Positions 28,636 to 56,048 of a stretch of 58,505 nucleotides of DNA are shown piece after piece; within the stretch, counting starts at the first letter, position 1; every line of letters begins with the position of its first letter. The DNA is from Ginglymostoma cirratum. Its lineage: Eukaryota. The stretch spans positions 698,338 to 756,842 of the forward strand of contig JAHRHZ010000116.1 in assembly GCA_024137785.1 (NCBI GenBank). The letters run 5' to 3'. A program made the translations under genes and the position numbers. The notes beneath the pieces were generated by a model. That model saw nothing but the letters and a program-made list of their open reading frames with translations. It was not told where the DNA came from and made no database searches.

Positions 28636-28945
28636 AAATGCAGGCCAAAGTACGGATCACACAGTCGCCTGTTGCATTAGTAGCTGTGGAAGGCCCCTTG
28701 GTGGCAAAGATCTGCAGTACCAGGACATTGCTCAGCTTTGCAAAGTGGTACAGGTAGCATGGTGGAGGGGAGACAAATCTTCTGATCACCGCCTCTATCT
28801 GCGTAGAGGATTTGGGACACTCTTCACCAGAACAGAAACGTAACACATTCATCATCAGAAACATCAGGAGGAAGGATACTCTGATTTACCACTGCCTGGT
28901 GATCATCACCATGTAACAACTCAAAGGGCAAACAGTATAGATACT
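28636..28945 (+). pseudogene. 'Ghost' TRAV-like V exon with RSS
   Basis: ITQSPVALVAVEGPLVAKICSTRTLLSFAKWYR*...IRNIRRKDTLIYHCLVI; CACCATG(28907)-23-ATAGATACT(28937). Confidence 0.8.
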
Positions 28946-29833
28946 CCAGGCAGACAGGAGTCAGACTGACAGCTTTGCGATCTGAGCATCAACAATCTTA
29001 CGGAGCAGCAACAATCAGTGACTGAAAATGAATTATGTGAAACTACCTTGTTCAATGTGGTAATATTGTGTGATTCGACATTGGTGAGAATCTAAAGCGC
29101 GTCCATTTTCGAAGCAAAGTGCTCTTAGATGTTATTAGACACATCTATAGGAGGTGACACGAGAACTGCAATCAATTGGAATCCGAGGGACGGACTCTAC
29201 CACTGACATCAGTAGATCCTCAGCGACACACAACAGCTACTGATCTGTAATTCATCCAGTTGTTTTCCAAACAGGAGCATGAGGATAATCAATGCTAATC
29301 GTACCTCCATCTTCATGTCCTGTTCGCAGGAGTGCAACTTCGAAACAGAAAAAGATTCTGCTCTTTAAAGTGTACTACAGGCCTACGAAGGAAATGGAGC
29401 ACGGTGCACTTGCATTAATACATGAACTGAAACCAAAGAACCGAGATCACTTTTTCAACACTTAATTTAAACATACAGGATAGTAGCATACTCAGTAACG
29501 CGAGTTATTATATGGAAAAAGCTGCTGAAAAATCTCTTTAAAGTGAGATTTTAAAAATCGTCCTGTAACTGTTTTTCGTTCCATTACAGAGTCTCCAATC
29601 AAATTGAGATAGAATTCAGTAATATACAGGGAAACAAAAAGAAGTACAAATGAAGCTGAAACTCAGATGAATGACAGTGTGACGCCAACAGAGGGGGCTG
29701 AAGATACCAGGAAAGCGAGATTCATATAAAGTACACAGCGAGTAGAACTGAAAAATTAACTGTTATACTGACTCTCCACATAGCATACGTTATCTCTCTC
29801 TTTCTCACTCACTCACAAACATAGACACACACA

Positions 29834-29884
<51 letters not shown>

Positions 29885-30229
29885 GAAGAGAGAGCGGGAG
29901 GAATAGAGAGCTTGGTGCCATGTTGTGTTCTGACCAGGTAAACACAATTCTACGTGATCACATCGCTGATGAAAGGATAAATTCAGCATCCCCTCAATAC
30001 ACTCGAATCAGCATTTTCAGTGACACCAATTTTAAAAGCCCGGCCGTGATGAACTGATGCTGTGTTTCCAGATGCTCCCATTTCATTCCTTCATTGTCAG
30101 GGCGACATGTCTGCGAGCTCAGAACCTGCACTTTCTTTTCTCAGCAGATACAAGAAACACTTGGTTGGCAGTTTAATGCTATATGAGAACGGTTTTCTCA
30201 ACAAATACAAGAGTCTATGGTCTAAAGGC

Positions 30230-30715
30230 AGTTTTTGCACAGGGTAAAGACTGTTTATCATGACTTCGTGCCCAAGCACGCAGAAATAGACAGCAGTGTC
30301 AGAAGGATCCCGGTGATTGTCAAACTGGTGAATTTCTTCGAGATCTGAAGTTCTATCGAGAAGTGACTTTTAGCAAAATCGGCTTTATTCTCATTATCAG
30401 TAGTAGTTTTCCTCAGTATATATTCAGGATTGGTGCCTGGATGTTGTGAGTACCAATATGACCTGTAGGAGCTCAATGTTGTATCATAGGTACAATTTAG
30501 AGTCACCGCCTCGCCTTATGGATGAACATCTGAGGAAACTGAGTGAATAACAAAATTTCCATGACTCAGGTCTGAACGGAAAACGAAATGTTAATTTCAA
30601 ATTATTACCTCGCATCAATTTAAAATATTATTGTTAAAGGAATGTGAATTGGAGTTCCTCCAAATAGACCTATTAGCATTGATACCCACACACCCCAAAT
30701 GTTGAGTAGCCACAT
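30230..30715 (-). pseudogene. TCR alpha/delta V pseudogene: leader 30670-30715, V exon ~30269-30571
   Basis: Leader MWLLNIWGVWVSMLI; TAA stop in FR1; TLNCTYDTTLSSYRSYWYSQHPG...KKFTSLTITG; FR3 frameshift; heptamer destroyed; nonamer GCAAAAACT. Confidence 0.88.
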
Positions 30716-52470: not shown

Positions 52471-52795
52471 ACCCTTGCAGCCCCAAAAACTGTCCCCTCA
52501 CAATATGTAATCTCACTGGACTCTATATTATCCAGCAGTATCTCTAATATTAGTTTTACCGGATTATTCCCTATTGATGTTTCTCTGACCCCAGACTCAG
52601 GATTATCACTTTCTCCCTCTGTTAGCTTCTCTCAGCTTTCTTCACTGATCTTATTCTCATCTACCTTCCTTCCCACTGTAGGTGCCTTTCTTTCTGACTG
52701 AACACAGAGGCCTCAAAGAGCAGGACTCACGCAATTTCTGAATAATGTGAGAGAAACTATCTTCGGCTCCACCAGCCTCAGCGTGTGTGTGCGTG

Positions 52796-52834
<39 letters not shown>

Positions 52835-54917
52835 GTGTCTGAGAGAGAGAAGCCAATTGTGTCACTCTATGCAATGGGCGATATTTGTCAGCGCTGTGAC
52901 TTCAATGGTGTTCACCGTGATACAATGCCACCTTCTGCTGGTGGTCTGAAGCTACTACAGCGGAACATCGTGAAAATCGCCTTGGAATGCACCAGAGGAA
53001 CGACAGCAAGCGGGCAACAGCGTTCAATGTGACAGCAGCATCACCACACACACACACACACGCACACACGCACACACACACACACACGCGCACACACACA
53101 CACACGCACGTGCGCAAGTTCAGTGTGGGGATTAGATTTGGTCAGTGTGACGGTTACAGAGGGTTCAGTGTGGGGATTGCACAGATGGTCAGTGTAAAGA
53201 AAACATACGCACCTAACCAAGTTCTCTCAGGATTATATATGCTGCAATTCAATCATGTCTGACTCTTGAAGCCCCTAGAGGATACAAGCCCAGGCTGTCT
53301 AGTATTTCCCCATCTATCTCACACTTGAACATATTTAGTGCTGAGACTCTGTGACTAAAAAATTCCATAGATTCTTTTACCTCTGAGGCAAGAAATGCTT
53401 CCTCATCTCTAATTTCGATGAGCGACTCCTTTTTCTGAAATTACACCATCTGCTGTTAGATTCTCCAATGGGGGGACAACTTTTCCGGTCCATTCTTTAA
53501 AAATTTTCTTACACACGTCGGGAGTGTGTGGAATTGAACGTGTGCCTTATGATTCAAAGGCAAGGACACTTCCACAACATCACCAGACCCTTCATGCAGT
53601 TCACTACGTATTGACATTACTCTGAAGTTGATGAACACAAAGCATGTTTGTTCACATTAATTTCTATGCAGATTTCCCGCCCTGGAGGAAAGTCAGAAGT
53701 TGTATGACACCAAATTACAGTCTGACAGATCCATTTTAAATCACAAGCTTTCATTGCGCGACTCCTTTATCAGGAAAAATTATTATAATTTCAAAGAAAC
53801 TTGTTGGACTCGTATTTCTAACTTTGTCCACCCCAGTCCAACACCGGCACTTTCACTTCATTGCTCTGGAATAACAGGAGGTAATTTTGTGTTACATTAG
53901 TGGCATTTAAAAGGGAATGGTTCAACACTTCAGAGTACAGAAGTGGAGATGAATGTCTGGTCTGTTAATTGTCATGGGCAAATCAAGAAATTAAATACGT
54001 TTTCCAGTATTTGGAAACAGCTGGAGTACAACCCGCCATTGAAGAAAATCGAACTTTGAGTCTGTTTTAAGGATCACACTGATTACAGTTTGAGATCTGT
54101 CCATGGTGTGCAAAACATCCTTGATCCTGAAACTCACAGTGAGTAAACACACCCTGTTAACAAACTGTGGATTGTAACTGCGAAAAACTGGCATGGAGGA
54201 TGTGGCAAGTACTGATTAGAATGATAGAAGGTTGAACAAAGTGAAACAAAGGACAAAAGAAACATTCAAATATCGCCAGGGAATTTATGATTGTCAGATG
54301 GACATGTGAATTGAGAGTATCAAAGACAGTACTTTATCCCTGCCAGTGATTTGATATTGCTTTGGGTTTGAATGGTTCTGTGCTGCTGTCCACTCTGTTA
54401 TTGAATCCCTGAATAGTTTGACCGTCCTCTTGTACAGTATCGTGCATCCACCAACAGCGGGCAGTATCATATTGCATGGAAAAGATGGGAGTGAAACATG
54501 GAAAGAGATTTCGAGATTCTTTTTGACCAATTCACTCATTATCATTCCCCAGTCAATATAACTAACATAGCGACATCCAGCTGCTTCTGAGCTGACCTTA
54601 GATCTGTGAGACAAAACTCCATAAGAACGTTTCTATTCTTTTTACCATATTTAACAGCAAACACTGAGACAGTCAGAACAATTCACAGCAGGACATATCG
54701 AAATGTACACGTAAAGACCTCAAAATAGTTATGCAAATCAAAGCATTTTTACTCGTTAGCACTAACATCTGCATGCAGAGACGGAAAAGGTTGAAAGCCC
54801 AGGTCGTTGCATTTGGAATTAGGGTGTGGTTGGAAGTATAACAACAGCACTTCCTGCACTGATCCATAAAGAGAAGGACCGCTGCTTATTTCAGTATTCT
54901 ACTCCTATCAATTGGAC

Positions 54918-56048
54918 ATGAAGATGGATGTGTGATGAAGGTTGATTATCCTCAAGCTAACTGAAATCGTCCCAGGTGAGCTAATTTTTGATTCTCACCC
55001 CAACCCTCACGTAATCTTATCACATTTCCATTTTGAGACAGAAATATTACTAGATTGGTTAAGGAAACCCTTTATTTTTGAGGGCTGAGAGGCAAGCAAA
55101 AAAAAAACGCATCACTTTCCAAACCAACCATCACTTCCTTCTGGAAGGGCAAGGGCAGCTGATACATGGGAACACCATTAACAGCAAGTTCCCCTCCAAG
55201 TCACGCACCAACCTGACTTGGAAACACATCACGGTTCCTTCAGTGTCGCTGGGTAAAAGTCCATACTTCACTCTGCAGCAGCTGCGTATGTCTACCTCCA
55301 AAACAAGAGTTGCAGCAGTTTGAAAAGGCAGCTCACCACCAAATTCTCTAAGGTATTAGGGATGGTCAACGACCACTATGCCAGCCTGCAACACCCAAAT
55401 TTGCTCAGGATCTAATCTTACACTAGCTAACAGCATCATTGAGGCATCAAATCGATACATTTTCTCAGAGTGAATGTTGAGAAGCAAAGACTTTGACACA
55501 TGATGGGATAATGTGAATGATGTCAATATCCTTTTTCCTGGTGGATTGAAACGCACAGGTGTGAGTGGAGAATAGACTTTATTAAAAATAGTTTGAGCAG
55601 AAACAGCATGTGTAAATATATACCAAAATATGCCCATTGAGAAAGACGATTTATTTCCAAGGAGCTGGATACTTGCACCCTTATTTGCTCTCATCATTTC
55701 TCTCATGGCCTTTGATTTCACATCATAGATCTCCTGACCAAACAGTGGATCACGCAGCCACCCCCATCACTACTGCTTGTTGAAGACTCTTCAGTAAGAA
55801 TGAACTGCACCATCAGCATCTTGTTCAGCTTTGTGAAGTGATACAGATGGCGTGGCGGACAGCAGCTGGACCTTCTGATCACCATTTGAGCAGCATGGCC
55901 AACGATGGAGGATTGAGACCATTCTTCACTGGGAACAGAAACACAGCACTTTGACGACCAGAGACATCGGGAGGGAGGATGCTGCCATCTATCCTTTTGC
56001 AGTGATCATCACCATGATGGAACCCAATCAGCAGGCAATATATGAACC
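54918..56048 (+). pseudogene. 'Ghost' TRAV-like V pseudogene: leader 54918-54975, V exon 55729-56009, RSS 56010-56048
   Basis: KQWITQPPPSLLLVEDSSVRMNCTISILFSFVK*YRWRGGQQLDLLITI.../IETILHWEQKHSTLTTRDIGREDAAIYPFAVI; CACCATG-23-ATATGAACC. Confidence 0.82.
55135..55400 (+). mobile_element. CR1/L2-type LINE 3' end inside the ghost-V intron (also 38800-39075 +, 640-930 -)
   Basis: CCCTCCAAGTCAC...GACTTGGAAA...GGCAGCTCACCACC...TTAGGGATGG resembles common elasmobranch LINE tails. Confidence 0.55.

Follow-up and report, generated by a model that had tools for sequence, protein, structure and literature searches.

Do the decayed sequences that lie on the opposite strand of a nurse shark T cell receptor (TCR) array represent an extinct lineage of variable (V) genes, or one that still works in other sharks? 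The question is raised by 58,505 nucleotides (nt) of Ginglymostoma cirratum (assembly GCA_024137785.1, contig JAHRHZ010000116.1, positions 698,338 to 756,842 of the forward strand), a stretch that we call the window and that forms the last 58.5 kb of its contig (C116). The intact V genes of the window have minus-strand orientation, and comparison by eye matches them to the nurse shark cDNA rows aV4.1 and aV9.1m in the available part of the PMC5931798 supplement, where the aV9.1m rows read, again by eye, as an immunoglobulin heavy chain (IgH)-like V; these matches identify the window, by its sequence, as part of the shark TCR alpha/delta V array. An original prediction, made from the letters of the window, had held that a decayed TRAV-like family, here called the ghosts, points the opposite way to the live V genes, and that it is an old V lineage, dead in every copy of the window, which hitchhiked through cassette duplication after inactivation. 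We identify the ghosts as broken members of a single, unannotated V subgroup of TRAV type in the shark TCR alpha/delta locus. Our preferred reading, which we hold as likely, is that duplication of neighbouring alphaV4 and IgH-like V genes carried them along as passive passengers. A bolder reading, to which we give a probability of roughly 0.35, is that this is a living, never-annotated shark TRAV subgroup that works in the bamboo shark Chiloscyllium punctatum and was lost here, and that its cassette records the swap of an IgH-like V for an alphaV4 gene.

Results

Identity of the ghost copies

Our survey took in C116:408-757 kb and, on a second contig, what is readable of C115:2.51-2.78 Mb, ~540 kb of the locus in all, and found 17 ghost copies, of which 16 were aligned; the 17th (C116:580251) is partial and stood outside lesion scoring, and all lesion counts below cover the 16 aligned copies. 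An nhmmer profile built only from seven copies outside the window recovered all eight predicted window copies and revealed one more, a minus-strand 5' fragment (40854-41037) that was absent from the earlier list. The nine window ghosts scored 59.5-373 bits, and the best of 30 nulls (29 shuffles and one reversed sequence) scored 4.9. The majority consensus of the 16 copies has an open V frame of 93 codons with a W-to-C spacing of 53, close to the consensus protein and the spacing of about 53 first proposed, and it retains all five V-set residues (C, W, DxAxYxC).

The V identity and TRAV likeness of the family are supported by profile, clade, consensus residues, recombination signal sequence (RSS) and leaders. 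A profile of 13 in-frame fragments matched TCR alpha chains in PDB (E 2e-11), and the best single-domain matches of the family in PDB and Atlas were TCR alpha V domains. All three features of a rearranging V segment were present, namely the conserved V-set residues, a separate leader exon with a phase-1 intron and a 3' RSS with a 23-bp spacer. Both protein libraries yielded to the 13-fragment profile one true relative, the bamboo shark protein chiPu_0019012 (GCC20452.1), at 134 bits, with all others at or below 55 per domain; a single-copy query found no match in a set of 5.8 billion proteins. In a tree, three ghosts and chiPu_0019012 formed a clade (100/99) that branches, with a long stem, from among short TRAV-like genes, with weak support for its deeper placement.

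Taken singly, the copies make poor immunoglobulin domains: none of three window copies passed the Pfam V-set cut-off of 26 bits (two gave Ig_3 matches at E 0.03 and 0.13), and two open copies on C115 reached only E ~1e-3 against V-set. This shortfall, and a high-copy repeat fragment within the leader intron, are what a transposon fragment or a chance similarity has in its favour. However, a genome search confined the ghost V exon, among V genes, to C115 and C116, and the exon comes with a leader, splice sites and a 23-bp RSS. The family matched TCR alpha V, the bamboo shark member passed the V-set cut-off (42.7 bits) and the profile stood far above its nulls, and we regard this reading as refuted.

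An intact-looking member in the bamboo shark

The protein chiPu_0019012 is annotated as a hypothetical immunoglobulin-like protein, and its gene model contains an intact leader and V. It is identical to the ghost consensus at 69 of 93 positions, resembles TRAV clusters in Atlas, and shares with the ghosts its subgroup, its leader family and a read-through tail that matches their 3' flank up to the M-intron junction described below. In contrast to the ghosts it is stop-free, has its leader in frame and retains the canonical C, W, D, Y and C; it carries no TCR V annotation. Its differences from the consensus were conservative, with a mean BLOSUM62 score of +0.33 against -0.31 to -1.33 in all 16 nurse shark copies. 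A mean this high was attained in 0.4% of 2671 matched neutral simulations, and a stop-free frame with C, W, D, Y and C retained in 5.5%. The protein also had the shortest branch within the ghost clade. These properties of one automatic gene model suggest that the bamboo shark copy is under selection. Because of this intact-looking member, the ghost V lineage is probably not extinct in sharks, so that the predicted extinction would hold for the window but probably not for the group.

Loss of function and neutral decay in the nurse shark

Stops or frameshifts interrupt seven of the nine full ghost exons in this genome. The two stop-free exons, both on C115, have either a leader that lacks 2 nt or a CT donor at a distance of 4 kb, and Y is changed to C in YxC. 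In one of them, at C115:2577666 (L015), an 11-nt deletion has cut the 23-bp spacer to 12 bp, and the heptamer is decayed. By functional TRAV criteria, none of the 16 aligned copies qualifies. Every window copy carries lesions and is dead, as had been predicted, and no present function is predicted for these copies. A genome check of the tBLASTn type with the bamboo shark protein, which scores best candidates only, turned up 47 matches, none of them an intact member of the family.

We compared the ratio of nonsynonymous to synonymous change (dN/dS, Nei-Gojobori) of each copy against the majority consensus with 300 neutral simulations that used a mutation spectrum from the same data. The ghosts gave 0.77 and the simulations 0.75 (0.63-0.90); six intact alphaV4 genes gave 0.48 (0.36-0.64) to their own consensus and 0.42 pairwise. 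Ghost identity to the consensus was 77/78/76% by codon position, and pairwise identity varied little (0.63-0.68) between V, RSS, intron, leader, promoter and flank. The ghosts of this genome decayed neutrally.

A repeated cassette and its duplication history

The ghosts are part of a repeated cassette that consists of a ghost V on the plus strand, an orphan promoter-leader on the minus strand and a live V on the minus strand. Ten ghosts have the paralogous promoter-leader ~300 bp further on, facing the ghost, and most of these are followed by a minus-strand alphaV4 or IgH-like V. Across the 10 units, the promoter-leader (M) modules contain an ETS-like core and a TATA-like box. Two M leaders still serve a V of their own (C116:682 kb and window 41.5 kb), which points to a tail-to-tail gene pair, P (the ghost) and M (its partner), as the beginning of the unit. 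In the remaining units the M intron is truncated, and its cut end is joined to the 3' flank of the P gene, and since the read-through of chiPu_0019012 matches this junction sequence, the junction would be older than the split from Chiloscyllium. The P introns share a fragment of a high-copy repeat (3773 candidates genome-wide, 83-86% identical).

Some lesions are shared between copies. Four ghost 3' parts have one leader-intron-to-framework-3 deletion in common, the ghosts at 28636 and C116:691733 share an 11-nt and a 1-nt deletion, and the V of the partner gene is already deleted in most cassettes. In the unit tree, the three cassettes with an IgH-like V grouped at 100 and joined 26058 at 80, the pair 28636/C116:691733 grouped at 100, and all of these were united at 98. 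The pairwise synonymous difference was 0.39 in both ghosts and alphaV4, as expected for co-duplication. Probably the ghosts multiplied as passive passengers of duplicated alphaV4 and IgH-like V genes. Hitchhiking through cassette duplication is thus borne out by shared cassettes, lesions and clades, whereas its timing, after inactivation, holds only for sub-clades.

The cassette is present in triplicate (8830-10772, 14580-16439 and 21193-23439) with an IgH-like V in the position that alphaV4 occupies in sister cassettes. Around these three IgH-like V genes, the ghost, the M promoter and a flank of 500-700 nt match those of the alphaV4 cassettes, and in pairwise comparison the homology starts ~50-290 nt past the nonamer, around a microsatellite. 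In the tree, their ghost units nest with one that stands beside an alphaV4 pseudogene. The simplest reading, for this genome, would be that an IgH-like V was swapped in place for alphaV4 and that triplication followed.

Ghosts, leaders and neighbours in the window

Three ghosts are full exons, all on the plus strand. The exon at 28636-28906 (to 28945 with its RSS, CACCATG / 23 / ATAGATACT) has one stop and the 11-nt and 1-nt deletions, and no leader was detected upstream of it. The exon at 39425-39713 has three stops, a 1-nt deletion, the heptamer CACCGTA and no remaining nonamer, and the exon at 55729-56048 (RSS CACCATG / 23 / ATATGAACC) has one stop and two 1-nt deletions. As predicted, two plus-strand P-type leaders of 58 nt with phase-1 donors precede the latter two, at 38575-38632 (intact; intron of 792 nt) and 54918-54975 (two stops; intron of 753 nt). 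The interspersed-repeat fragment common to P-type copies lies within the second intron (55110-55262, plus).

Five further ghosts are 3' parts on the plus strand. Four carry the shared large deletion: 8830-8975 and 14879-15019, with decayed RSSs, and 21486-21632 and 26058-26206, each with an RSS; leader remnants lie at 14580-14676, 21193-21286 and 25759-25854, respectively, for the last three. The fifth, a short 3' end with RSS at 36612-36701, has a separate breakpoint of its own. With the bamboo shark protein as query, tblastn found the three full exons at 87-97 bits (55729 in two pieces) and four of the five 3' parts at 29.6-34.3 bits (null maximum 24.3), missing 26060. The ninth copy (40854-41037, minus) is the 5' part of an M-type V, with its M-type leader at 41483-41547 (minus).

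The RSS is looser than had been described. Among eight window copies, spacers of 21-24 nt were found in seven, but CACYRTG was exact in four (CAC intact in five) and ACAGAAACY in only two. The ghost consensus RSS (CACCATG / 23 / ACAGAAACT) is decayed but recognisable, and the ancestral heptamer would have been CACCGTG.

Orphan M promoter-leaders on the minus strand face seven of the window ghosts: 9550-9661 (facing 8830), 15309-15419 (14879), 22190-22301 (21486), 26613-26724 (26058), 29264-29373 (28636), 36990-37100 (36612) and 56358-56469 (55729). Intact alphaV4-type neighbours on the minus strand are at 57740-58068, 34271 and 51337, with pseudogenes at 30279, 45527, 47912, 48698 and 6336. 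IgH-like V genes are intact at 16112-16439 (minus) and 23112, and the one at 10454 lacks the second Cys. Leader modules of the ghost family without a ghost V nearby were also seen, at C116:645587 (intact, phase-1 donor) and C115:2598048. Separately, an inverted duplicate (659-4931 versus 32939-39076, 79-97% identity by arm) yields a plus-strand alphaV4 with a damaged YxC (3268-3593) and a copy of the P leader without its V (1112-1199).

Orientation relative to J and C

The C115 ghosts lie ~20-35 kb upstream of a cluster of joining (J) segments, an exon of C1-set type and a long array of further J segments, and all of these share one strand; from their order, the J and constant (C) sequences would be alpha/delta. 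The V genes nearest J are four alphaV4 genes beside these ghosts, which are inverted relative to J and C. In this part of the locus (C115:2572-2598 kb and 2611-2709 kb), a pattern search found no diversity (D) segment with a standard 12/23 RSS. A PF09291 search did not locate C alpha. An alphaV4 at the end of C116 is 91% identical to the first readable V of the C115 cluster, in the same sense and with the same cassette polarity, from which we infer that C116 joins C115. Given this polarity match and the strand shared by ghosts, J and C on C115, the plus strand of the window is probably the J-C sense, and the live V genes would rearrange by inversion. The ghosts do point the opposite way to neighbouring V genes, as predicted, but on C115 they share the strand of J and C, to which it is alphaV4 that is inverted.

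Relation to described V families

Short-type TRAV genes (nurse shark aV9.1B in the available part of PMC5931798, and mammalian TRAV22/TRAV41-like genes) were the nearest profile matches of the ghosts and share with them a W-to-C spacing near 53, a short second complementarity-determining region and a 23-bp RSS. However, the ghosts are only 23-35% identical to these genes and have a long stem of their own. The live cassette neighbours, alphaV4 and the IgH-like V (aV9.1m by eye in the same part of PMC5931798; the accessible part of PMC12227049 gives nurse shark IgH-like V the name TAILV), are not members of the ghost family (~23-28% identity). Membership of an alpha V family already described in nurse shark (aV1-7, 9, 10) would call for ~70% nucleotide identity, and in the first 5-24 rows per label, compared by eye, nothing resembles the ghosts. 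Three family motifs had no match in a 448-row cDNA file, in which two control motifs also had none, so that this search had no working control. In the literature searched we found no description of the subgroup, and earlier nurse shark locus studies may map these pseudogenes.

Three observations concern the live relatives themselves. In the available Table 1 source data of PMC5931798, V sequences of two unrelated kinds, one IgH-like and the other a short TRAV, carry the same label, aV9.1. In the nearest live family, which matches the aV9.1B rows, a 21-residue signal peptide is continuous with the V exon in all three copies examined (L019, C282:170 kb, minus; L023, C282:778 kb, minus; L025, C282:59.6 kb, plus), apparently with no leader intron. 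A short TRAV-like V on a further contig (L027, C108:2797906) is intact and has an RSS; the tree places it with C116:529 kb (97/80) along a long branch.

Discussion

Several points weigh against our preferred account of the ghosts as passive passengers, their last working copy lost here. The bamboo shark evidence is one automatic gene model, known as protein only. An intact nurse shark copy may exist, given a genome search that covers best candidates only, and could hide in the more than 1 Mb of C115 that reads N. The dN/dS interval could conceal mild early selection, several cassettes are without a live neighbour, and the unit tree has a basal support of 28-58. No exon lesion is common to all ghost copies and the consensus frame is open, so that the radiation may have started from an intact founder; for the same reason, and with so weak a tree base, death before the first duplications is no more than a possibility. 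Just such an early death is the core of the most serious rival, in which the family had already died when duplication began and no shark retains it alive, with the bamboo shark model taken as a slowly decaying pseudogene. Two of nine full exons here are indeed stop-free yet dead, database searches gave a single relative, and a search with chiPu_0019012 returned only itself among 14 candidates, with no rearranged chain using this V. Its heptamer, when deduced back from the amino acids, can only be CACNATG, a non-canonical form, and the nurse shark alpha cDNA rows compared contain no match. Neutral decay would nevertheless seldom produce a sequence as conservatively changed as this one, or one with its frame and key residues preserved, and the short branch and in-frame leader likewise count against it. 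We consider the rival unlikely, though not negligible.

A different proposal is that the dead units are kept for a role in cis, their promoter-leaders or decoy RSSs opening chromatin or driving germline transcription beside the inverted V genes. Ten units do keep the facing promoter-leader. Reads were compared with a C115 stretch of ghost and alphaV4 only, the ghost's own leader being outside it, and run X1, which we guess to be RNA although no run listed as containing the sequence is recorded as such, gave a spliced alphaV4 leader and unspliced contigs (depth 7-21) from alphaV4 through the M leader into the ghost exon. These contigs are strandless, however, and may be alphaV4 read-through or DNA. 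Run X2 gave one low-depth unspliced piece on the ghost, run X9 none on the ghost, although alphaV4 was itself barely covered, and run X10 nothing. Sequence constraint shows no peak over the module (pairwise identity 0.68 in the promoter, 0.71 in the ETS core and 0.65 in the flanks) and the RSSs are decayed, which makes a cis role improbable.

Under our preferred reading, the gene would have existed as a tail-to-tail pair, P with the intronic repeat and M without it. M would then have lost its V, with its intron fused to the P 3' flank, before the split from Chiloscyllium, and the cassette would have been copied around the time of the alphaV4 radiation. Later rounds would have duplicated P genes that were already dead, and eventually the last working copy would have been lost in this lineage, with the bamboo shark copy probably remaining under selection. 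The mechanism of expansion is not new: it is the collateral homology-unit expansion described for the bovine TRA/TRD locus, where, in the available part of PMC4289303, dead TRAV8, 23 and 24 expanded with TRDV1. All its features are present in the shark, namely a repeated multi-gene unit, a dead passenger, a live driver and shared lesions. As in that account of cattle, a mostly dead TRAV subgroup was co-duplicated with live alpha/delta V genes and bears shared and private lesions. Unlike the bovine units described there, the shark passenger is inverted relative to its driver, has no live member found in this genome, shows far older decay (~23% from consensus) and derives from a tail-to-tail pair with an orphan promoter-leader.

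With the ghost family, the shark TCR alpha/delta repertoire gains a V subgroup that had gone unannotated, and a bamboo shark protein without a name receives an identity. The collateral kind of expansion of dead V genes known from cattle also shaped a cartilaginous-fish locus. As a neutral passenger, the ghost offers a usable clock and can serve to put the cassette duplications in order, the arrival of the IgH-like V among them; if the proposed swap is true, the fossil cassette records the entry of antibody-type V genes into the TCR delta locus.

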